Shown: one piece after another, positions 387-48,952 of the stretch
Position numbering within the stretch: position 1 is the stretch's first letter
Layout: every line of letters starts with the position of its first letter
Assembly: GCA_012797775.1 (NCBI GenBank)
Contig: JAAZOM010000029.1
Location: forward strand, 3,722 to 67,721
DNA length: 64,000 nt
Origin: Candidatus Kuenenbacteria bacterium
GTDB lineage: Bacteria > Patescibacteriota > Patescibacteriia > UBA2196 > GWA2-42-15
Direction: 5' to 3'
Notes under the pieces: generated by a model
Databases searched by the model: none
What the model saw: only the letters and a program-made list of their open reading frames with translations
Told to the model about the DNA's origin: nothing
Made by a program: the position numbers and the translations under genes

Positions 387-760
387 TTTTATCACCCCCT
401 TTCTGGTAAGATGCTTTCCTCATGTTGAGCGTTGAAAAATTCAGTAGAAAATTTTTCAACAAACGACGAGCACGGGAAAGAAAATTACTTTATAAAATTT
501 ATAGAAATATTTTTCGCAAATTTTTTTTAAAATATTTTTATAAATTTTTAAAGAAAAAAGTTATCCACAAGTGAACTGATATATTAATTATAAAATTATT
601 TTAATAAAATGTAAATAGTGAAAATAAAGTTGGAGAAAATAAAATAGAAAATTATAGAAATAAAATTTTTAAAATAAAAAACATTAATTGTTGTGTTAAT
701 GTTTTTTAATAAGATAAAATAATTTTGGCTGACCGTGTGAGATACGAACTGTTTTAAAAC

Positions 761-785
761 CCTCCTGCTCGCAAAGCAGGCGCCC
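761..785 (-). pseudogene. Duplicate of the tRNA-Ala(TGC) anticodon arm (tRNA fragment)
   Basis: 23 of 24 nt identical to positions 891-914 of the adjacent tRNA-Ala, with no complete cloverleaf around it. Confidence 0.4.
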
Positions 786-865
786 CGTCTGCCATCGCCT
801 TGAACACTACCGGGCTCGAACCGTTTGAGAGTAATACCAGGCCCTCCGCCCTGCTTTCAAGAAAT

Positions 866-939
866 TGGACTGTGCGAGATTCGAACTCGCGACCTCCTGC
901 TTGCAAAGCAGGCGCTCTAACCAACTGAGCTAACAGCCC
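866..939 (-). tRNA. tRNA-Ala (anticodon TGC)
   Basis: Hand-folded cloverleaf GGGCTGT..(anticodon loop TTTGCAA)..GGTTCGAATCT..ACAGTCCA, with a G3:U70-style acceptor stem. Confidence 0.85.
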
Positions 940-947
940 AAAATATT

Positions 948-1310: not shown

Positions 1311-1331
1311 TGGTACCGCTACGGGGGATCG
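1311..1331 (-). repeat. 21-bp direct repeat of the tRNA-Glu 3' end (att-like)
   Basis: TGGTACCGCTACGGGGGATCG is identical at 1311-1331 and 1480-1500. The copies flank a ~148-bp segment. Confidence 0.7.
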
Positions 1332-1479
1332 GGTCCGGGGCAGCGGCAAATCCTGCGCCAGCTCTGATTTGCCGTCGTCTCGCTCGCCAATTTCGGCGGG
1401 CTCACTTCTGCCCTTCGATTCCCTGAGAATCAAAAATGTTTTGCCTTAAATCAGAATAATCAAAATTTAAAATATTCGG

Positions 1480-1554
1480 TGGTACCGCTACGGGGGATCG
1501 AACCCCGATTTTCAGGATGAAAACCTGATGTCCTAACCATTAGACGATAGCGGC
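1480..1554 (-). tRNA. tRNA-Glu (anticodon TTC), CCA encoded
   Basis: Cloverleaf GCCGCTA..loop TTTTCAT..CGGGGTTCGATCCCCCG..TAGCGGTACCA. Confidence 0.85.
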
Positions 1555-2861: not shown

Positions 2862-3425
2862 TTATATTTTATCGCGGAGTTTGAGATCGTAGATGATCGA
2901 TTCTATTTTCTTGAGATTGGTGCCGATGATTTCTAGTTTGGTCCGAGTGGAATTATTTCTAGTGATACTCAAAGGAATAATCAAATCATAGATTTTGGAG
3001 ACATAGTCGTGAATGGCTTTAACCTGTTTTTCGTTTTGATGGGCTAGCCGGACGAGTTCACCGGTCAGATCGGAGAGACCGCCGAGATAAGTGTCGGGCG
3101 TGACCTTGAGCGAGGTGGCAGTGGGCAGGGGTTTATTTTTTATATAATTGTAAAGTAGGACAGCCTCGACGTATTCTTCAAAACCGACATTGATGGCGGG
3201 GATGGCATAAAGATATGGATGGCGACCTAACTTTTTTTGAAGGACATCAAAGATTTTGTGCATTTCCGGTAAGTTTTTGACCACGGCCTCGGAATTATTT
3301 TTAATCAGAAAACTGATAGTTGATTTGGATAAAATTCGTAGCTTGTCGGAGAGATTCATGCAAGCGCTGCGTTCGCGGTTGTGCTCTTCGTAGAGCCTGT
3401 AGGGGATCTGGGGAAGTTTGGGCAT
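2862..3425 (-). CDS. Translin-family protein (putative)
   Basis: YLGGLSDLTGELVRLA resembles the translin/TRAX signature. Recognised by eye only. Confidence 0.4.
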   Translation of the reverse strand: MPKLPQIPYRLYEEHNRERSACMNLSDKLRILSKSTISFLIKNNSEAVVKNLPEMHKIFDVLQKKLGRHPYLYAIPAINVGFEEYVEAVLLYNYIKNKPLPTATSLKVTPDTYLGGLSDLTGELVRLAHQNEKQVKAIHDYVSKIYDLIIPLSITRNNSTRTKLEIIGTNLKKIESIIYDLKLRDKI

Positions 3426-9968: not shown

Positions 9969-10679
9969 ATGGAAAAAAGTGAGCAGATGAAAGATTTGGA
10001 AAAAAGATTGGGAGTAGAATTTAAAGATAAAAATTTGTTGAAAGAAGCATTGGTGCACCGTTCATATATCAACGAACACCCCAGTTTTGCCGTAAATCAT
10101 AATGAGAGATTGGAATTTTTGGGAGATGCGGTACTGGAGCTAATTGTGACGGAGTATTTGTTTAGAAATTATCCAAATCCGGAAGGAGAAATGACGAATT
10201 GGCGGGCAGCGCTTGTTAATGCCAAGATGCTCGCGGAAATCGGAGGATCTTTCGACCTGTATGCTTATCTTTATTTGTCGAGGGGGGAGTCAAAGGATAA
10301 TAATATTAAGGCAAAAAATTATATTATTGCCAATGCAGTAGAGGCGGTGATTGGGGCGATTTATATCGATCAGGGGTTTGAGGCAGCTAGGGTTTTTATT
10401 ACCAATAATATTTTAGCGCGTTTGAATTATGTTTTGGAACACAAGCTGTACATGGATGCCAAGTCACACTTTCAGGAGATAACACAGGAAAAAATGGGGA
10501 TTACGCCGAGCTACAAGGTGGTAGAAGAAAGCGGACCGGACCATAATAAAAAATTTGTCATCGGAGTATATTTGGGAGAGGAATTGATCGCTCGTGGCGA
10601 GGGTACGAGCAAGCAGGAAGCACAGATGGCCGCGGCGGAAAACGCGCTGATACAGTGGGAGAATGAGGGAAAGATATAG
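9969..10679 (+). CDS. rnc: Ribonuclease III
   Basis: ERLEFLGDAVLELIV catalytic signature and a C-terminal dsRBD. Confidence 0.95.
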   Translation: MEKSEQMKDLEKRLGVEFKDKNLLKEALVHRSYINEHPSFAVNHNERLEFLGDAVLELIVTEYLFRNYPNPEGEMTNWRAALVNAKMLAEIGGSFDLYAYLYLSRGESKDNNIKAKNYIIANAVEAVIGAIYIDQGFEAARVFITNNILARLNYVLEHKLYMDAKSHFQEITQEKMGITPSYKVVEESGPDHNKKFVIGVYLGEELIARGEGTSKQEAQMAAAENALIQWENEGKI

Positions 10680-19241: not shown

Positions 19242-19285
19242 TTTTGTTACTTGAAAAAAGGCGTATAAAAGGTTACGATAAAGAT

Positions 19286-20836
19286 ATGAAAAAGGAAAAT
19301 CTCAAAAAGACAATTATGCAGTTGAAGGAGGAGGGCTTTTTTGATTGGCAAAAAGAGATAGAAAAAAATAAGGGCGAGGTTTTTTTGGTGGGCGGAGCAG
19401 TGAGAGATGCCCTGCTTGGGGACAAAGAAATAAAGGATTATGATTTTGTGGTGAGAGGAATAGAGATAGAGGAGCTTGGTAAAATTTTAAAGAGCTTGGG
19501 TAGGGTGGAACTCGTTGGTAAGAGTTTCGGTGTATACAAATTTGTACCGGCTGGTAAGAAAATGAAAATAGCTTTTGATATTGCATTGCCCCGAACAGAG
19601 ATTGCTCTGGCAACTGGTGGGTATAAAGATTTTAAAGTGAGGTATAATCACAAATTAAAAATAGAAGATGATTTGGGTCGTAGAGATTTTACAATTAATG
19701 CCTTGGCTTGGGATTTAAAGAAGGAAAAATTAATTGATGAGTTTGGAGGTTTGGAAGACTTAGAAAACAAATTGATCAGGACTGTGGGCAATGCTCAAGA
19801 GAGGTTTCGGGAAGATTATTCTAGGATGCTTCGAGGAGTGCGTTTTGCTTGTCAGCTGAATTTTCAAATAGAAAAAAGTACCAGGGTGGCTTTGCAGAAA
19901 TTGATAAAAAATATAAATGATGAGCGCGGCGGAGAAAGGGTGGTGCCGTATGAAATTTTGGGCGAGGAGATTTTGAAAGCTTTTGTTTATAATCCCATGG
20001 AGGCTTTTGATCTGATGGATAAATCTGGAGCGATGAGAGAGACAATGCCAGAGCTTTTAAAAATGAAAGGGTGTCCACAGCCAAGGAATTGGCATAGTGA
20101 GGGCGATGTCTGGACGCACACAAGATTGTGTTTGAAAAATTTAAATAGCGAGGCTTTTCGGGAAAGATTTGGAGACCCAATTATTTTTGATGATAAAATC
20201 AAAAACCAAAACTCAGAATTCAAAAGCAAGGTTAGATTATTAAATGCGGAATTAGTGATGGCCGTTTTGTGGCATGACGTGGGAAAGCCGGTAACAATTA
20301 TGACACCAGAAAAAAATGGCTCTGATAGAATTCGTTTTAATAATCATGATGAGTTGGGCGCCAAGATGGCAGAAGAGATTTTTAGAAAAATGAAATTTTC
20401 AGCCGCACCGGATTTTGATTTTGAGCCAGAGCGAGCTGCTTGGCTGATAAGAAAGCATCATTTATTTGATAAAAAAAGGATAAAAGAAATGAAGGCGGCA
20501 ACAATTGAAAAGTATTTTTTTTGTGAGAGATATAGTGGCGAGGATTTATTAAAACTCGGTTTTATTGATGGGCTGAGCTCAATACCGGAGGACGAGGAAG
20601 AACAGTTGGCGAGTTTTAATTTGATGATTGGCAGAATAGAGGGGTTAAAGAAGTTGGGTAAGGATAGAAAATTGCCAAAGCCATTACTTGATGGCAACGA
20701 GATAATGAAGATTTTGAAGATAAGGCCGGGCAAGAAAGTGGGTAAGATTTTGGAAGGGTTGAGAGAAAAACAGTTGGCGGGGAAGATAAAAAATAGAAAA
20801 GAGGCGGAGAAAGAGATCGGGAAGGTGGGGAAGTAG
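19286..20836 (+). CDS. cca: CCA-adding enzyme / tRNA nucleotidyltransferase with C-terminal HD domain
   Basis: GGAVRDALLG, RRDFTINA and HD-domain WHDVGKP motifs. Start placed at ATG 19286. The ORF track begins at TTG 19244. Confidence 0.8.
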   Translation: MKKENLKKTIMQLKEEGFFDWQKEIEKNKGEVFLVGGAVRDALLGDKEIKDYDFVVRGIEIEELGKILKSLGRVELVGKSFGVYKFVPAGKKMKIAFDIALPRTEIALATGGYKDFKVRYNHKLKIEDDLGRRDFTINALAWDLKKEKLIDEFGGLEDLENKLIRTVGNAQERFREDYSRMLRGVRFACQLNFQIEKSTRVALQKLIKNINDERGGERVVPYEILGEEILKAFVYNPMEAFDLMDKSGAMRETMPELLKMKGCPQPRNWHSEGDVWTHTRLCLKNLNSEAFRERFGDPIIFDDKIKNQNSEFKSKVRLLNAELVMAVLWHDVGKPVTIMTPEKNGSDRIRFNNHDELGAKMAEEIFRKMKFSAAPDFDFEPERAAWLIRKHHLFDKKRIKEMKAATIEKYFFCERYSGEDLLKLGFIDGLSSIPEDEEEQLASFNLMIGRIEGLKKLGKDRKLPKPLLDGNEIMKILKIRPGKKVGKILEGLREKQLAGKIKNRKEAEKEIGKVGK

Positions 20837-20910
20837 GGAGGTAGGTAAGTCGGGTAAACTGTAGTGTTTCATTGTTATGTTGTTGAATTATTAAATTGTT
20901 AAGTTATTAT

Positions 20911-21852
20911 ATGACAAAATTTTTAGTCGAATTAGGAGATGGGGGCAAAAGATTGGACCAATTTTTACAAGGAAAGCTGGGGGAGCTGTCGCGTTCACAG
21001 ATACAGAAAATGATTAAGGCCGGAGAAATAACCGTTGACGGAAAAGAGGTGGCAGTACATTATTTTTTAAAACCGGGGAATGAAATTAAAGTCAAAAGTC
21101 AATCCGCCAGCCGGCGGACAAAAGTCAATCCGCCAGCCGGCGGGCAAAAGTCAAAATTGGCGGGAATAAAAGTTATAAAAGAGGATAAGGATTATATTGT
21201 AGTAAATAAGCCAGCGGGGATGGTGGTGCACCCAGATACTATATACAAAGATAACGCTTTGGTTGATTGGCTAGTAAAGAAATATCCAGAGGTAAAAAAA
21301 GTGGGTGACGATCAAAAGCGACCGGGGATAGTACATCGTTTGGACAAAGATGTTTCTGGTCTTATGGTGGTAGCACGGACGCAAAAAATGTTTGATTATT
21401 TAAAAAAACAATTTCAAGATAGAAAAGTGGAGAAAGAATATCTGGCCTTGGTTCATGGTGTGGTAGTAAAAGATGAGGGCCTGATTGATAGGCCGATTGG
21501 CAGGACAGTTGGTGGGGTGATGGGTGTGGGATCAAAAAATAAAAAAAGTCGAGAAGCGGGAACACAGTATAGGGTGGTGGAAAGATTTAAAAATTTTACT
21601 TTATTAAAAATAAAGATTTTTACTGGGCGGACACACCAAATCAGGGCGCACATGAAATCGATTGGGCACGGCTTGATTGGCGACAATCTTTATGTGACGC
21701 GTGATATAAAAAGGAAAAAGAAACAAGAGGATTTGGGGCGAGTGTGGTTGTATGCTTGTCGGCTGGGTTTTAAAGATCTGGATGAGAAATGGCAGGAGTT
21801 TGAGGTGGCAATGCCAGAAGAATTAAAGTTGTTTTTGGGGAAGATAAAATAA
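20911..21852 (+). CDS. RluA-family 23S rRNA pseudouridine synthase (RluD-like) with S4 domain
   Basis: S4-like N-terminus and HRLDKDVSGLMVVART catalytic motif. Contains an in-frame tandem 26-bp repeat insertion (21093-21154). Confidence 0.85.
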   Translation: MTKFLVELGDGGKRLDQFLQGKLGELSRSQIQKMIKAGEITVDGKEVAVHYFLKPGNEIKVKSQSASRRTKVNPPAGGQKSKLAGIKVIKEDKDYIVVNKPAGMVVHPDTIYKDNALVDWLVKKYPEVKKVGDDQKRPGIVHRLDKDVSGLMVVARTQKMFDYLKKQFQDRKVEKEYLALVHGVVVKDEGLIDRPIGRTVGGVMGVGSKNKKSREAGTQYRVVERFKNFTLLKIKIFTGRTHQIRAHMKSIGHGLIGDNLYVTRDIKRKKKQEDLGRVWLYACRLGFKDLDEKWQEFEVAMPEELKLFLGKIK

Positions 21853-44210: not shown

Positions 44211-45257
44211 TTATTCATTAAACACAGAGCCATCAATCGCGTATTTTTTGGCAATTTCCTTGGTGATTAGTTTTTCCTTGATAAGTTGTTGTAGGTATTG
44301 GTCCATACTGATCATGCCATCGTCTGAGGAGGTTTGGATAACGGTTTTTATCTGGGCAATTTTGTTTTCTCTGATGAGGTTGGCGACAGCTGGGGTGTTG
44401 ATCATGATTTCTCTGGCCACGACGCGGCTTTGTCCGTCTGGAGCGGGGAGGAGTTGTTGGGCGATAACACCAATAAGACACATAGACAACTGCATACGTA
44501 TCTGATCTTGCTGGTGAGGTGGGAAGATGTCAATAATTCTGTCTATTGTTTGAGAGGCATTGGGTGTGTGGAGGGTGGTCAAAACAAGGTGCCCGGTTTC
44601 TGCTAGGGTGATAGTAGACGAGATTGTTTCTAGGTCGCGCATTTCGCCAACCATAATGACGTTGGGGTCTTGTCTTAATACATGTTTTAGGGCTTCGGGG
44701 AAAGAAACAAAATCAAAACCATATTGGCGCTGGCGGATAATGCTTTTTTGCGGCTGAAAGACGAATTCAATCGGATCTTCCATGGTTATGATATTGGCAG
44801 CACGGGAGTTATTTATATAGTTGATAATGGCGGCGAGTGAGGTGGACTTACCGCAGCCGGTTGGGCCAGTAAGAATAATCAGGCCTTGATTGAGCTCGGC
44901 TAGCCGATAGACAATTTGGGGCATATTAGTTGATTCCATGGTTGGCGGTTCGGTGTTGATAATGCGGGCGACCAGTCCGGGATTACCTTTTTCAAAATGA
45001 AGATTGACACGAAAACGTTCTCCGGAGCTAAGTTCATGGGAGACATCCATTTCTCGAGTATTGATAAAATCTTCTTTTTGTTTGGGCGTTAGGATGGTAT
45101 ATATTAATTCTTCAACTTTCTTTTTGTTGATAATACCAAAATCATCAAGACGATAAAGAACACCATTGATTCTGATAATTGGTGGTTCATTGACGACGAG
45201 GTGGACGTCAGAGGCGCCTTTGTCGACGCCGATTTTAAAGATTTGATCCAAGAGCAT
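44211..45257 (-). CDS. pilT: Type IV pilus retraction ATPase PilT (twitching motility)
   Basis: Walker A LTGPTGCGKSTSLAAII. Asp box, His box and PilT-family length. Confidence 0.9.
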   Translation of the reverse strand: MLLDQIFKIGVDKGASDVHLVVNEPPIIRINGVLYRLDDFGIINKKKVEELIYTILTPKQKEDFINTREMDVSHELSSGERFRVNLHFEKGNPGLVARIINTEPPTMESTNMPQIVYRLAELNQGLIILTGPTGCGKSTSLAAIINYINNSRAANIITMEDPIEFVFQPQKSIIRQRQYGFDFVSFPEALKHVLRQDPNVIMVGEMRDLETISSTITLAETGHLVLTTLHTPNASQTIDRIIDIFPPHQQDQIRMQLSMCLIGVIAQQLLPAPDGQSRVVAREIMINTPAVANLIRENKIAQIKTVIQTSSDDGMISMDQYLQQLIKEKLITKEIAKKYAIDGSVFNE

Positions 45258-45419
45258 AGTAGTTGGTTAATTTTTATATGGTTATTATACCACAATTGTC
45301 TCACTGGTGGTAATTTTTTGGGTGTAATTTTTTTTGACTTTTGGCGGCGTTTATGGTTAGATTGTTTAAATACTAGAAAACAAAAATTGACATATCAATA
45401 TAAGGTTTGGGAGGACAAG

Positions 45420-47708
45420 ATGAATCAAGAACTATGTTATCAGAAAGTGGTTTTGGTGGCTAAGGGCGAAAATTTTTTTAGCCAGCAATTCCATGAACGT
45501 GAAGTGCCGTTCACTCTAGCTGATGAGAATGGTCTGGAAAGTTTAGATTTCGAGCCTGACTTGATTCTTGCAGTAAATCAGGGATTGAGGCGAGCAGAGG
45601 CATTTAAGGCAAAGTTTGCCTCGGCGACGGTAGTGGTCTGTCAAGGCGGCGCAAAGCACTTCTCTCCACTTTTGACAGTGGTTTGGGGGCAGGGTGTGAA
45701 TGAACACGATTACCACCATTTTGCCAGCTGGGATGCTTTTTTCAGCCTGCTTAGTACACCATTCTTGAAGCAGGAGAAAATATTGCAACAAGTCGATGAC
45801 GGTGTTTTTAACATCGATAGCGACTTGGCAAAAAAGACGGTGCCCCTAATGGATGGCGACGAAACCATGAGCAAGAGAACCCATGGTTTTAACAGCATGT
45901 ATTATACGGGGGAGAGATATTTAGGCTGGTATCTTGATTGGTTGGCAGAAGTAGAAAAAAAAAGGTTTCCGTGCCACTTCACCATGCGAACTGACGGCTC
46001 GGCTGGTAAAAAAAAGGTCTCCATAGTCTCGGTAAGATATTTCCCCGAAGTCCATGTCCACAAAGGGGTGGGAGTATTTAATTTGGAAGATTGGGCCATG
46101 TTTAGGGACAGTGACGGCAGAAAGTATCCGGCTTCGGTGGTGGGGGTAGATACAGGTGATCGCCAGATTATTACTTTTAAATTTGGCGTTCCATTGACTC
46201 GAAAAAAAGTATCAAGACTTACATGCTTTCAAAAAATAGTTAATAAGGCGATGCACAATAGGTATCTAGAGATGGTTCATAATTTGGAGGTGAATGAAGG
46301 AACATTGCCATTGAGAGTCTTGGCTGGCTCGGCGAATAATTCAGCGACCAAGTTTCCGGATGAAGTAAAAATTGATCCGAGAGGCCGCAAAATTTTGTGT
46401 GATCAGTGGCAATGTGAAGCTCTAGCGGCGACGATGAGCAATCAGCCAGTCACCTGCATAGAGGGTATTGGCGGATCTGGCAAGACAACACTCCAAGCTA
46501 TGGCGGCTAAAAATTTTTATCAACAGGGCAAGATTATCTTTTTGGTTTCTCATAGCAATAAAGGCTTGGATGTTTTACTCAATGAGGTTGTGCTTAATTT
46601 GGGTAAAGAACAATATCCATTTATCTTTCGTCTAGGAAATGGTAGACAAATGATAGAGAAAGTCAATCTACCATTTCACCGCCTAAATAGATTTGAAGCT
46701 GGAAAAGCCAGTGAATTGGAGCTGGCTGAAATTCAGAAAGCGATTAATAGTGGGAAGGGAGTTATTATCGCTTGTACTTTAAATGGTCTCATAGTTGATG
46801 AGACTATTAAAAAGATGCTGGAGGCTGGAATTTATCCAGATGTATCTTTTCTGGATGAGGCTAGCCGTGGCCATGTCTATGAAGTAGTTTTTCTTTATAG
46901 CATAACTAGGGAAAAAGTGATAAATACCCTCGACCGGCAGCAGCTTTCGAATATTCCTTTGTCAAGAGAAGCGCGCTCGGAGCTGCAGGAAAGCGGCTCA
47001 AGATTTGAAGAGATTGACGATTTTGACGCCGGGCTTTTAAAAACTTTTCTCAAAAAGGGTTTGTTGACCAGTATTTTTTTGAGGATTTGCCGACGATCAC
47101 TACCCAAAATTATTGAGGTGTTTAATGTTTTTTATGGTGGGCAGGTGATCCCTGGACGCTTTGAAGATGGCAATCAGGGGCAAGTAATTGTCTATGATTT
47201 CTGTAAGGCGCAGGATAGATGGGATGAGCCGAGCGGCAACTCTCTCATCAATAGGCGTGAGGCAAAGCTACTCGCGCAAGTTTTCAAACGCTATTGGAAA
47301 CAATCACCGGATCCTGATTTGGTTGGCATTATCACTTTTTATCAGGGGCAAGTTCGGGAAGTAAGAAAGAAACTCCGAGCGCCATTGATTTTTGCCCTTA
47401 GAGTTGAGCAAGAAGAATTTGATGCCAATATACCGGAGATTGTAAACACGGTGGATGCCTTTCAGGGCTCTCAGCGGCGGAGAATTTTGCTCTCCATGGT
47501 TAACTCGAATATGCTTTTTAACATAGGATTTAATCACCACGAAGAGAGGGTCGTGGTGGCTCTGACAAGAGCCCAGGATTGTTTGGTTATTTTTGTAAAT
47601 TCAGATACATATTTACAAAGTGATCAGGCATCCTCCAATACCAAGGGGGCTATCCAAAAGGCGATCGAAATTGCTAAGATGGATGGCGTGTATTTCTTGG
47701 TGAAATAA
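45420..47708 (+). CDS. Upf1/Dna2-like SF1B helicase with ~390-aa uncharacterised N-terminal domain (horizontally acquired, candidate defence gene)
   Basis: Q-motif LCDQWQCEALA, Walker A GIGGSGKTT, Walker B SFLDEAS, VDAFQGSQ and VALTRAQDCLVI motifs. GC and codon usage are higher than in neighbouring genes. SD GGGAGG precedes ATG 45420. Confidence 0.7.
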   Translation: MNQELCYQKVVLVAKGENFFSQQFHEREVPFTLADENGLESLDFEPDLILAVNQGLRRAEAFKAKFASATVVVCQGGAKHFSPLLTVVWGQGVNEHDYHHFASWDAFFSLLSTPFLKQEKILQQVDDGVFNIDSDLAKKTVPLMDGDETMSKRTHGFNSMYYTGERYLGWYLDWLAEVEKKRFPCHFTMRTDGSAGKKKVSIVSVRYFPEVHVHKGVGVFNLEDWAMFRDSDGRKYPASVVGVDTGDRQIITFKFGVPLTRKKVSRLTCFQKIVNKAMHNRYLEMVHNLEVNEGTLPLRVLAGSANNSATKFPDEVKIDPRGRKILCDQWQCEALAATMSNQPVTCIEGIGGSGKTTLQAMAAKNFYQQGKIIFLVSHSNKGLDVLLNEVVLNLGKEQYPFIFRLGNGRQMIEKVNLPFHRLNRFEAGKASELELAEIQKAINSGKGVIIACTLNGLIVDETIKKMLEAGIYPDVSFLDEASRGHVYEVVFLYSITREKVINTLDRQQLSNIPLSREARSELQESGSRFEEIDDFDAGLLKTFLKKGLLTSIFLRICRRSLPKIIEVFNVFYGGQVIPGRFEDGNQGQVIVYDFCKAQDRWDEPSGNSLINRREAKLLAQVFKRYWKQSPDPDLVGIITFYQGQVREVRKKLRAPLIFALRVEQEEFDANIPEIVNTVDAFQGSQRRRILLSMVNSNMLFNIGFNHHEERVVVALTRAQDCLVIFVNSDTYLQSDQASSNTKGAIQKAIEIAKMDGVYFLVK

Positions 47709-47737
47709 TAAAAAAGGCAAAAAAAGAACGGCGATCT

Positions 47738-47772
47738 GCAAAATGCACAGAACGCCGTTTTTATTTGGGCGA
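47738..47772 (+). terminator. Rho-independent terminator after the helicase gene
   Basis: GAACGGCG..CGCCGTT hairpin followed by TTTATTT. Confidence 0.55.
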
Positions 47773-47804
47773 GATGCCACCGCATTGGGCATGAATCCTT
47801 TTGC

Positions 47805-48020
47805 TCAATATAATTGTTGATGGTATTGAGACAGACACCTCGCCTGGAGTGCCAAGCCCAAAATGATGTGGGCGGCTTTCCATGTCCTCGACCTCATCTT
47901 TTTTTTGGGCATTCGGGTGGCCGGCTCGCAGTGAGCAGCCACCCATTGAGGTACAGTTGGGCACAAAAACCTAACTGCCACCTGGGCACTCCAATTTAGG
48001 AGTTGCGATACGAAGAACAT
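47805..48020 (-). CDS. Possible 71-aa protein in a GC-rich spacer
   Basis: Strong SD AAAGGAGGA lies 5 nt before the ATG. ~55% GC. It competes with a possible ncRNA interpretation. Confidence 0.25.
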   Translation of the reverse strand: MFFVSQLLNWSAQVAVRFLCPTVPQWVAAHCEPATRMPKKKMRSRTWKAAHIILGLALQARCLSQYHQQLY

Positions 48021-48141
48021 ATCCGTCCTCCTTTGTTGGAATGTTCAGTTTTTACTCTAACAAAAGAGAAAAATAAGTCAAGAGTTTATTTAAAAACAAA
48101 AACATCAATCTGATAGATTGATGTTTTTGAAAAAAGATACT

Positions 48142-48153
48142 CGGGGGTGACTA
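48142..48153. repeat. Direct repeat of the tRNA-His 3' end plus flank (CGGGGGTGACTA), second copy at 48295-48306
   Basis: 12-bp identical copies ~150 bp apart bracketing a GC-rich segment. Confidence 0.5.
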
Positions 48154-48296
48154 CTCGCCTCGCTGGACCCGCCTAGACTCGTTAGGCGAGGCTGGCGCAA
48201 GTCGAAGCGGGCTGGGATTTGTCCCGAGATAAACTCGGGATAAAAACCCAGACTAGCGGGACCATCCCCCACCAAAATTTGGAGGAAGGGTGTCCG

Positions 48297-48372
48297 GGGG
48301 TGACTAGAGGGAATTGAACCCTCGCTAGCGGGACCACAACCCGCTGTTCTACCATTAAACTATAGTCACCCC
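48297..48372 (-). tRNA. tRNA-His (anticodon GTG) with encoded G-1
   Basis: G-1 + GGGTGAC acceptor, anticodon loop TTGTGGT, T arm GAGGGTTCAATTCCCTC. No CCA. Confidence 0.85.
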
Positions 48373-48409
48373 CCAACATCCTTGTCTGCTTGGGGGTTTT
48401 GGTGGGGGA

Positions 48410-48438
48410 CTGTTCTACTACTAAACTATAGTCACCCC
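48410..48438 (-). pseudogene. Partial duplicate of the tRNA-His 5' half (acceptor + D arm)
   Basis: GGGGTGACTATAGTTTAGTAGTAGAACAG mirrors the tRNA-His 5' half but lacks anticodon and T arms. Confidence 0.5.
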
Positions 48439-48458
48439 TAAATATCTTTTTGTTGAGC

Positions 48459-48533
48459 TGGTACCCCCGAGAGGAATCGAACCCCTATAACCAGCTTAGA
48501 AGGCTGGTGTTCTATCCATTGAACTACGGGGGC
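48459..48533 (-). tRNA. tRNA-Arg (anticodon TCT), CCA encoded
   Basis: Cloverleaf GCCCCCG..loop CTTCTAA..GGGGTTCGATTCCTCT..CGGGGGTACCA. Confidence 0.85.
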
Positions 48534-48952
48534 ATAAAATAATTAAAAAACTTTCAGTCTTAATTTCCGAATAATAATTAATTTTTATAATTTTTAAAGA
48601 AAATTTGCGGAATTGGGGACACTGGGGTAAAAAATTAGCTTTTGGGCTAGAAAACAATAAAAAAGCTAAAGTTGAAGCTTACTTAGATAAACATACACTA
48701 AAATGCTTTTTTTTTCAAGTTTTGGCCAAATATTTGACAGAACTTGTGGTTGGTGATATTGTAAAGGAAGACAATATTTTATTTATCCACACCTGCCTTT
48801 AGGATGATATTACCCAAAATATTAATGATTTTAAGGCAGTTTATCAAATCAAATAAAAATATCCTTTAATACACAAATTTCGGCCGGCTGCAAGGTGGTT
48901 GCCGAGTTATTTTTTTGTGTACATTTTTGTTATTCGTAAACTATTTTAAAAA

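Follow-up and report, generated by a model that had tools for sequence, protein, structure and literature searches.

Why should a tRNA-His gene that appears intact lie in the middle of broken copies of itself? The question is raised by a 64,000-nt stretch of DNA from Candidatus Kuenenbacteria, of the Patescibacteriota (contig JAAZOM010000029.1, positions 3,722 to 67,721; hereafter the window, meaning this whole 64-kb stretch), in which tRNA-His(GTG) is found at 48296-48370 on the minus strand (ARAGORN; Rfam 68.5 bits). The original prediction took this gene to be flanked by a direct repeat of its own 3' end, by one GC-rich insert of 150 bp and by a truncated copy of its 5' half, and saw in these the traces of repeated integration and excision of tRNA-targeting elements. 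The repeats themselves are borne out. Across the window the 12-mer CGGGGGTGACTA has exactly two occurrences (48142-48153 and 48295-48306), and it finds no match in 100 dinucleotide shuffles; similarly, the upstream copy of the acceptor and D-arm is real, at 85% identity over 40 nt (48410-48449 against 48344-48383). The flanking layout, however, gives way to a nested one, in which the minus strand reads from an outer 5' half, through the inner complete tRNA-His, to an outer 3' part. The reading that we favour, and hold to be rather probable, is that the locus is a tRNA gene replacement in mid-decay, and one case among small non-autonomous cassettes, each bearing a whole tRNA, which replace the tRNA genes that they disrupt.

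Two features that had been missed bring out the nesting. The first is a third repeat (48245-48264 against 48317-48336, 85% over 20 nt), spanning the 3' strand of the anticodon stem, the variable loop and the 5' strand of the T-stem. The second is a perfect 13-bp inverted repeat, TCCCCCACCAAAA (48409-48397) and TTTTGGTGGGGGA (48277-48265), which sits precisely at both points where the tRNA homology ends. With these in place the array can be laid out in the order of its minus strand as follows.

48571-48598, minus strand: promoter-like site TTTAAA-16-TATTAT, 5' of tRNA-Arg and the predicted start of the Arg-His unit (consensus match only).
48459-48533, minus strand: tRNA-Arg(TCT), uninterrupted, the first gene of the unit (ARAGORN, Rfam).
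48439-48451, minus strand: leader of the outer (resident) tRNA-His, pairing with the outer trailer at 48129-48141 (23-nt arms, 87% complementary).
48410-48438, minus strand: 5' half of the outer tRNA-His, G-1 to G27, with the conserved D-loop GG lost (ortholog of the tRNA-His of relatives L001 and L089).
48265-48409, minus strand: I1, a 145-nt insert ('type B' cassette) in place of host positions 28-34 (CGGGTTG), with boundaries set against the uninterrupted tRNA-His of L001.
48397-48409, minus strand: left arm of I1, TCCCCCACCAAAA (inverted-repeat search).
48371-48383, minus strand: leader of the inner tRNA-His, AAGGATGTTGGGG, pairing with the inner trailer (24-nt arms, 83% complementary).
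48296-48370, minus strand: inner tRNA-His(GTG), intact, with G-1 encoded and CCA not encoded (ARAGORN, Rfam).
48286-48298, minus strand: trailer of the inner tRNA-His, CCCGGACACCCTT (from its pairing with the inner leader).
48265-48277, minus strand: right arm of I1, TTTTGGTGGGGGA, the perfect complement of the left arm (homologous right junction in L081 and L088).
48245-48264, minus strand: 3' part of the outer tRNA-His, running from T35 as far as the beginning of the T-loop, TGGTCCCGCTAGTCTGGGTT (no difference from L001).
48222-48244, minus strand: I2, a hairpin of 23 nt inserted into the T-loop of the outer gene, TTTATCCCGAGTTTATCTCGGGA (stem of 7 bp, -11.6 kcal/mol; not present in L001 or L089).
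48212-48221, minus strand: remainder of the outer T-loop and 3' strand of the T-stem, CAAATCCCAG.
48154-48211, minus strand: I3, a GC-rich, structured insert of 58 nt that separates the outer T-stem from the 3' strand of the acceptor (-25.0 kcal/mol; absent from L001 and L089).
48129-48153, minus strand: outer acceptor 3' strand, CCCCG, with its trailer, TAGTCACCCCCGAGTATCTTTTTTC (the same as the trailer of L001 and L089).
48097-48128, minus strand: intrinsic-terminator-like hairpin with a T run, the predicted end of the unit (inverted-repeat search).

What had been taken for a single GC-rich insert is in this layout several things in succession, namely the inner trailer and right arm (48295-48265), three stretches of the resident 3' part (minus strand, 48264-48245, 48221-48212 and 48153-48142), I2 and I3. 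The element that did enter tRNA-His, as had been proposed, is I1, and it lies within the resident gene, where the junctions read …AACAG, then the insert, then TGGTCCCGC. Within I1 the left arm is separated by 13 nt from the inner leader, the complete tRNA-His comes next with its trailer, and a further 8 nt lead to the right arm. The inner gene (GGTGACTA...TAGTCACC, containing AATGGTA and TTCAATT) has a cloverleaf, a GUG anticodon, an encoded G-1 opposite C73 and the conserved D-loop GG and T-loop, and is presumably functional; the lack of an encoded CCA fits with the presence in the window of a gene for a CCA-adding enzyme (19244-20833), and RNase III is also encoded (9969-10676). The minimum free energy fold of 48445-48135 places the outer acceptor stem and the 13-bp stem around an intact inner cloverleaf, at -146.7 kcal/mol, where shuffles reach -101 ± 5.4 (z = -8.45). 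The entire tRNA-Arg/His array lies between a single promoter-like site and a single terminator, and from these consensus matches is probably one transcript.

No integrase, recombinase, transposase, reverse transcriptase or RNA ligase is found among the 46 open reading frames (ORFs) of at least 110 aa in the window. Rfam returned only tRNAs and chance matches, both over the whole window at the gathering threshold and over 47700-48700 at E up to 10, where no known RNA family covers the GC-rich segment. BLAST of I2 and I3, of inserts at tRNA-Glu and tRNA-Ala elsewhere in the window, of GC-rich 47720-48095 and of a neighbouring helicase gene gave no match in any of the loci fetched from relatives.

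Which of the two copies, then, is the resident? Synteny through rpoB in 80 genomes of GTDB finds the tRNAs kept upstream only in the closest relative, and further relatives were fetched through homologues of RpoB. Those whose RpoB is 80-89% identical keep tRNA-Arg and tRNA-His upstream of rpoB, and the order tRNA-Arg, tRNA-His, rpoB is shared with L001, L089 and L092. In L001 and L089 the tRNA-His is plain and uninterrupted; in other words, the window arrangement is not conserved as one RNA in all relatives, and the conservation which the original prediction had said would count against it is not found. The plain gene resembles the outer copy of the window and not the inner, and has leader and trailer in common with it. 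Indeed, once I1, I2 and I3 are set aside, 75 of 80 aligned positions agree, and the five differences comprise two compensating changes in the acceptor stem, two which destroy the D-loop GG and one in the T-loop. At the site of I1 the outer copy is without the 7 nt CGGGTTG (positions 28-34), among them the first anticodon base, and with that base gone the outer tRNA-His is dead. From this comparison of sequences the outer copy is the resident gene and the inner copy the newcomer.

The inner copy has a different affinity. Across its T arm and variable region it differs from the outer copy by five compensated substitutions and resembles the tRNA-His allele of L093, from which it follows that it is not a recent copy of its host. 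This bears on the possibility that no mobile element was ever involved, and that the locus arose by local rearrangement, either through tandem triplication of tRNA-His with two internal deletions or through template switching on the cloverleaf in the course of replication. Such a course has some attraction in that leader-trailer pairing is general in the tRNA-His genes of the clade (L001, L089, L093, L109, L156), which means that the complementary flanks could be inherited leaders and trailers, and in that L089 has an apparent tandem copy of tRNA-Arg with its trailer duplicated. It is nevertheless very unlikely, since beyond the foreign character of the inner allele it needs two symmetric deletions that end exactly at a perfect inverted repeat, and cannot account for the near-identical arms, described below, that unrelated contigs have whether the tRNA between them is for Arg, Thr, Ala or Pro.

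The pairing of leader with trailer deserves a description in its own right. It amounts to 10-14 bp, is present in both window copies as well as in L001, L089, L093, L109, L156 and L081, and lengthens the acceptor stem (GGGG/CCCC beside G-1:C73). A run of T often comes next, so that the lengthened stem may also serve in processing or as a terminator. The sequence TCCCACCAAAA in L089 may be the left arm of a type B element in tRNA-Arg, but may equally be a tRNA 3' end (..CCCACCA) with A's after it.

What appears to be a further stage of a related replacement is found in L081 and L088. Here another tRNA-His allele is followed, at the same junction as in the window, by a homologous right arm, TTTCAGCGGGGGAT, and then by a more mutated remnant of the resident 3' part, the 5' half having gone.

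Does the nesting extend beyond tRNA-His? In the same relatives it does, since the tRNA-Arg(TCT) upstream of rpoB is nested or littered with hairpins in most of the Kuenenbacteria relatives. In L001 (1276-1460), L109, L156 and L190 one tRNA-Arg(TCT) contains in its D-loop (21/22) another, complete tRNA-Arg(TCT) that has CCTGCCCGCCATAGCCT and AGGCGATGGCAGGCGGG on its two sides, arms which pair with each other; the nested gene of L001 folds as a cloverleaf within a cloverleaf. The same host sequence is uninterrupted in L081, and the filled host of L109 matches the empty one of L081 apart from one D-loop base and with no target duplication, as expected from a clean insertion. L093 has a decayed tRNA-Arg whose D-loop holds three tandem units of this second kind of cassette, termed type A, including two 'empty' hairpins; further inserts lie in the anticodon loop and T stem, and the Arg alleles are in reciprocal combination as compared with L001 and L109. 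L089 has one 'empty' type A hairpin at tRNA-Arg, and L190 and L090 hold further variants of the nested gene. Small hairpins of other sequence (TCCGC..GCGGA, TCTCCC..GGGAGA) were also seen in the D arm in L094 and L090.

The type A arms, 17 nt each (CCTGCCCGCCATRGCCT and AGGCGATGGCAGGCGGG), allowed the family to be sought in metagenomes at large. As single GC-rich motifs proved unusable, the scan called for the inner parts of both arms with a tRNA-sized gap of 68-98 nt between them, and it returned 84 loci, about half of which are chance matches on GC-rich contigs. Forty-one cassettes (within L106-L185) have a tRNA verified by ARAGORN between their arms, in inserts of about 110 nt; nearly all of their contigs have 34-48% G+C, and several come from groundwater according to the names of their records. 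A contig of this type that was probed matched a DNA methyltransferase, which is uninformative on taxonomy. The passengers are tRNA-Arg (TCT, CCT, GCG, TCG, CCG), tRNA-Thr (CGT, TGT, GGT), tRNA-Ala (CGC) and tRNA-Pro (TGG, CGG), and nearly every one is visibly inside a second tRNA. Conceptual excision restores a host tRNA of the same anticodon in 17 of the 41 (ARAGORN); most of the other hosts are fragments of the same isoacceptor, read by eye, while a few are too decayed or are cut by the end of the contig. Wherever a host is readable among the 41, no mismatch between the anticodons of host and passenger is found. Overall, type A cassettes occur on many contigs in tRNA genes with at least 11 different anticodons, tRNA genes being the only hosts seen. 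The cassettes are co-oriented with their hosts, and the points of insertion fall in loops only.

21/22: hosts tRNA-Arg TCT, CCT and CCG, and tRNA-Thr.
33/34: host tRNA-Arg TCG.
35/36: host tRNA-Pro TGG.
36/37: hosts tRNA-Pro CGG and tRNA-Arg GCG.
37/38: host tRNA-Ala CGC.

The arms are conserved beyond what the scan demanded, in that their outer bases (7 and 5 nt), which lay outside the search pattern, are also kept: 28 of 41 rows have the full left arm with CCTGCCC, and 27 of 41 the modal right arm with its terminal GCGGG, a tally made on a separately and loosely filtered set of 41 that includes some chance matches from GC-rich contigs. The arm helix retains a U.G wobble and a C x A mismatch in most copies. 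One case, L167, is recursive, with a tRNA-Thr inside an identical tRNA-Thr, itself preceded by another left arm. In others the fates of passenger and host can be followed separately. A near-identical passenger is common to L140, L149, L126 and L133/L184, whose hosts have variously an acceptor mismatch with a lost D-loop G (one host), an internal deletion that reaches from anticodon loop to T arm (two) or a truncated 5' part with U33 changed to C (two); the host of L119 has a 1-nt deletion in the anticodon stem. From such alignments the pattern appears to be that of a conserved, functional passenger in a dispensable host. Mini-hairpins of the form CCTGCC-loop-GGCAGG at other positions of the same hosts (L116, L129, L134, L148) may be internally deleted cassettes or footprints. 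In viral contigs the arm motifs AGGCGATGGCAGRCGGGG and CCTGCCCGCCAT..GGCAGGCGGG gave only chance matches, in high-GC phage contigs; searches there with the passenger pattern of type A and with the arms of type B likewise gave only chance matches, and thus no evidence of carriage by phages.

That assemblers might have stitched together strain variants of tRNA genes has to be considered, as the locus is one at which assemblies break. Contigs L002, L090, L095, L190-L192 and L197 end within or just before the tRNA-Arg/His locus (in their first 330-510 nt), as does the Logan assembly of the window's own sample, and these ends fit with repeats or strain heterogeneity breaking assemblies there; moreover, both assemblies that hold the window arrangement derive from one set of reads. 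As an explanation of the nesting, an artefact is nonetheless barely credible. The junctions carry arms and leaders which are not tRNA and which a mixture of strains would not create, and the same architecture recurs in NCBI, JGI, ENA and Logan assemblies of unrelated samples.

A more classical possibility is that elements were repeatedly integrated at tRNA-His and lost again, each bringing a partial copy of the tRNA, and left displaced 3' and 5' fragments and stubs of their own DNA, tRNA genes being the classic attachment sites of integrases. The surroundings of the locus lend themselves to this view. The stretch from pilT to the tRNAs differs in every relative, holding a serine recombinase in some, an NYN/HEPN_AbiU2/Methylase_S defence island beside the tRNAs in L081 and metabolic genes in others, such that the stretch is a variable island and the tRNA locus a true integration hot spot. 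In L082-L085 (about 130-1700) the gene for a large serine recombinase ends inside or against the 3' end of tRNA-Arg; within the window, tRNA-Glu has an att-like perfect 21-nt copy of its 3' end 149 nt downstream. To this extent the original prediction stands, in that a tRNA gene was targeted, that the locus is a hot spot in relatives and that tRNA-Glu and tRNA-Ala are affected in the same window. Scars of the attL/attR type are another matter. No direct-repeat core exists at the ends of I1, which are inverted, and 7 nt of the target are lost; the tRNA-derived repeats nest around a complete inner gene, and the insert holds a whole tRNA-His with its own leader and trailer, not a single chimeric gene. 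Two independent events, of which one replaced the 3' part and the other the 5' part, would not leave a perfect 13-bp inverted repeat at both junctions, there is no integrase in the window, and the 41 type A cases share the nested plan, inserts of about 110 nt and conserved arms. Scars of integrases are, on balance, an unlikely explanation of the locus.

The comparison may be drawn in general terms. Integrative elements that target tRNA genes, such as phages, genomic islands and integrative and conjugative elements, likewise bring a replacement sequence, by which the cell stays viable, and leave fragments of the resident. They are, however, kilobases in length and encode a recombinase, bring no more of the tRNA than lies past the crossover and are bounded by direct repeats, whereas the inserts here have 145 nt (about 110 in type A), encode no protein, contain the whole tRNA nested in a loop or arm and have inverted ends.

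The recombinase in L082-L085 is of interest apart from the nesting. Its domains are Recombinase and Zn_ribbon_recom, with Resolvase also in L082, L083 and L085; RpoB of these contigs is identical to that of L081, and tRNA-His was not seen in them, while L086 and L087 have a truncated, unannotated ORF at the same position. Together L082-L085 and L081 are a case of population-level presence and absence of an integrated element at the tRNA-Arg locus. In L091 (4035-4635, minus strand) the spacer of 600 nt between tRNA-Arg and tRNA-His holds an ORF whose cysteines recall a zinc finger and whose C-terminus is HNH-like (…HHKDRNRQNN…LCHNCHHLVH), as read by eye, which may encode a free-standing homing endonuclease.

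By what steps could the locus have arisen? In the reading that we favour, an ancestral tRNA-His was located between tRNA-Arg, its immediate upstream neighbour, and rpoB, and would have been split in its anticodon arm by a 145-bp cassette, consisting of a 13-bp arm, a complete foreign tRNA-His allele with its own leader and trailer, and the inverted arm. This insertion would have removed seven host bases, including the first of the anticodon, leaving the cell dependent on the inner copy, after which the dead outer gene would have lost its D-loop GG and gained the hairpin inserts I2 and I3. From a single precursor, RNase P and 3' processing would release the inner tRNA, while the arms and outer halves would fold back on themselves. 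More generally, small cassettes of inverted arms around a whole tRNA would insert into the loops of tRNA genes and persist, whether by selection or by specificity of targeting, only where the passenger has the anticodon of the gene destroyed; necessarily, passenger must match host, as nothing else would rescue the loss of an essential and presumably single-copy tRNA. A non-autonomous, DNA-level mobile cassette kept by selection is, in our view, the most economical reading of the nested anatomy and of its recurrence.

Several matters weigh against it. No enzyme, autonomous copy or excision product has been identified, which means that mobility is deduced from distribution only. The type B arms differ from those of type A and are seen only here and, in degenerate form, in L081 and L088, such that the link of the tRNA-His locus to the family rests on architecture and not on sequence. 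Insertion which is confined to loops, co-oriented and free of duplication is unlike that of typical inverted-repeat (DDE) transposons. Several type A hosts are fully intact, and those of L157 and L183 differ by compensatory pairs, which calls either for independent site-specific insertions or for hosts that still function. To these must be added the single set of reads behind both assemblies of the locus, and the fact that the copy number of tRNA-His is known for the 64-kb window only and not for the whole genome.

Some of these same points invite the thought that the system works at the level of RNA, the cassette being a tRNA-encoding intron or the outer halves forming a two-piece tRNA-like RNA. 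The whole array lies in one predicted transcription unit and folds far better than shuffles; the insertions are precise to the base, in loops and in one orientation, and include the canonical intron site 37/38; 17 type A hosts are intact once the insert is conceptually removed; the hosts of L157 and L183 have their compensatory pairs; and the U.G wobble and C x A mismatch of the arm helix make its pairing better on the tRNA-sense strand. In the window, however, removal of the inserts leaves tRNA-His broken, since positions 28-34 are missing, and with them a portion of the anticodon stem and the first base of the anticodon, the D-loop GG has gone and I2 and I3 disrupt the T arm; the outer RNA has probably ceased to function. 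Decay is visible in many type A hosts but not in their passengers, and an intron gives no reason for the anticodons of passenger and host to match. The window, which is only 64 kb of the genome, yielded no splicing endonuclease and no RNA ligase, and no bulge-helix-bulge is seen at the junctions, the arm helix starting directly there without two 3-nt bulges around a 4-bp helix (folds were inspected; no dedicated motif search was made). We regard splicing or a two-piece RNA as distinctly unlikely at this locus.

A related idea concerns the spread of the cassettes. The want of target duplication, the preference for loops and the strict orientation leave room for a route through RNA, in which RNase P and RNase Z would cut the nested precursor and free the inner tRNA, the arm helix would hold the outer halves together or allow their ligation, and the 'empty' hairpins would be re-ligated products copied back into DNA. 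It is possible, if doubtful, that the hairpin-armed cassettes are in this sense a new class of selfish element, homing into the loops of cognate tRNA genes, rendering the cell dependent on the passenger and spreading by way of RNA. Equally tentative is the suggestion that the cassette is a protein-free, intron-like bacterial element which encodes a tRNA, the tRNA-His of the window being an old and decayed example.

How, finally, does the favoured cassette stand beside systems already described? Miniature inverted-repeat transposable elements and mobile insertion cassettes, some of which carry passenger genes, are likewise small, lack a transposase, are bounded by terminal inverted repeats and exist in many copies, with ends that are conserved and interiors that vary or are deleted. 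The 'empty' hairpins of L089 and L093 and the mini-hairpins of L129, L134 and L148 are of a piece with this; here, the terminal repeats match at 13 of 13 positions in I1 and take the form of 17-nt arms in the 41 type A cassettes. Such elements, however, duplicate their target site, which is not so in L109 as compared with L081, nor at tRNA-His, which has lost 7 nt. Also unlike them, insertion is seen only in tRNA genes, in the orientation of the host and with a passenger that has the anticodon of the host, and no matching autonomous element is known.

Disrupted tRNA genes of archaea, with multiple or non-canonical introns or split into separate genes, likewise have insertions in D-, anticodon- and T-loops and GC-rich helices that join two halves. 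In Sugahara et al. 2012 (PMC3293823) such genes are discussed under a mobile-element model, and a tRNA-Thr fragment in Caldiarchaeum is given as a 5' piece left upstream of a newer copy after integration of an element. The archaeal introns differ in that a splicing endonuclease cuts a bulge-helix-bulge and the exons are joined, neither motif nor enzyme being found here. Moreover, the present host is a bacterium, the outer gene of the window cannot yield a decoding tRNA, and no archaeal intron is reported to hold a whole tRNA of its host's kind.

Group I introns in the anticodon loops of bacterial tRNAs (bioRxiv 10.1101/2020.01.27.920355) are similarly sporadic in their distribution among relatives; unlike them, the present insert is mostly tRNA and bases of the host are deleted. 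No group I catalytic core was matched in Rfam, either in 47700-48700 (E up to 10) or in the window (gathering threshold). Intervening sequences and processing stems of rRNA offer a parallel in loop inserts closed by a helix and in a leader-trailer stem, and a gene for RNase III is at hand in the window; with them, however, the fragments stay functional and no second copy of the gene is carried. To our knowledge, nothing comparable has been described for tRNA. Each known system resembles the cassettes in one or two respects and parts from them on at least one defining point. A tRNA that lies within another tRNA is not described for bacteria in the literature searched, the silence of which is no proof of novelty, and the cassette family is conserved and apparently undescribed. 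The locus fits a passenger-carrying, non-autonomous insertion element with targeting to tRNA genes, and there is a substantial chance that its mechanism is of a new kind.

Two further models for the arms were set aside. As attachment sites of serine or tyrosine recombinases they have no dinucleotide or core shared between the two junctions, and for integron attC and dif-like sites the defining boxes are missing (by inspection).

Other sites in the window have points of resemblance to the tRNA-His locus. At tRNA-Glu(TTC) (1311-1554, minus strand) a partly GC-rich insert of 149 nt separates the gene from the perfect repeat of its last 21 nt (GATCCCCCGTAGCGGTACCA, 1331-1311), and tRNA-Val comes immediately afterwards. 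This layout is like that of tRNA-His in L081, with a new gene and the displaced 3' remnant of the resident, although no arms were recognised. At tRNA-Ala(TGC) (730-940, minus strand) the gene is followed by about 65 nt with a decayed T-arm and acceptor remnant, then by a type A right arm, AGGCGATGGCAGACGGGG (800-783), and then by a degenerate copy of tRNA-Ala comprising its 3' two-thirds, from the 3' strand of the D-stem to the 3' end. The site is an old type A insertion at the junction of D-loop and D-stem 3' strand in a former tRNA-Ala.

Beside the tRNA-His array itself, a promoter-like TTGACT-16-TAGAGT with TG (48081-48054, minus strand) precedes a GC-rich segment of about 300 nt, which ends at a terminator-like hairpin near 47760-47720. 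This region (47730-48081, minus strand) has a strong Shine-Dalgarno sequence and an ORF of 71 aa (48020-47805) of odd composition, with no match in Rfam or Pfam and no homologue in the fetched loci; it could encode a small protein or a non-coding RNA. Beyond it, at 45201-47708 (plus strand), is the gene for an SF1 helicase of 835 aa (AAA_11/AAA_12), whose N-terminal half has 400 aa without assignment and whose C-terminal part matches the Mokosh defence proteins MkoA and MkoC (PADLOC).

Two tandem GC-rich palindromes (TCCGCCAGCCGGCGGA, 21103-21146, plus strand) lie in frame in the ORF at 20896-21852, within the linker between its S4 and pseudouridine synthase domains. Their style is that of the hairpins in tRNA pseudogenes of L094 and L123, and palindromes of related style also occur in an intergenic spacer of Nealsonbacteria contig L029. 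Their presence in a protein gene and in a spacer hints, if weakly, at a process acting on DNA. Further off, a protein of the Translin family (2862-3422, minus strand; Pfam E = 1.4e-17) is encoded beside a cluster of tRNA-Ile(TAT) and tRNA-Val. Translin/TRAX nucleases have tRNA precursors among their substrates in eukaryotes, whereas it is unusual for bacteria to have a member of the family; a tRNA-Ile whose anticodon is TAT is uncommon too.

What the nested tRNA genes would mean for these bacteria follows from the size of their genomes, in which tRNA genes are presumably single-copy and essential. An element that lands in such a gene, and survives through the spare copy that it brings, would be a minimal form of genetic addiction, and a possible route to the horizontal replacement of core translation genes. 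It would explain why assemblies break at tRNA loci of the candidate phyla radiation, why tRNA finders report odd fragments there or miss genes, and how tRNA alleles move between lineages, as with the reciprocal Arg alleles of L001/L109 and L093. The conserved 17-nt arms imply a sequence-specific enzyme that acts on DNA or RNA and could have practical interest. Finally, the nested cloverleaf bears on the debate over the origin of disrupted and split tRNA genes, for which it offers a bacterial system with its intermediates, from intact to decayed hosts, side by side.

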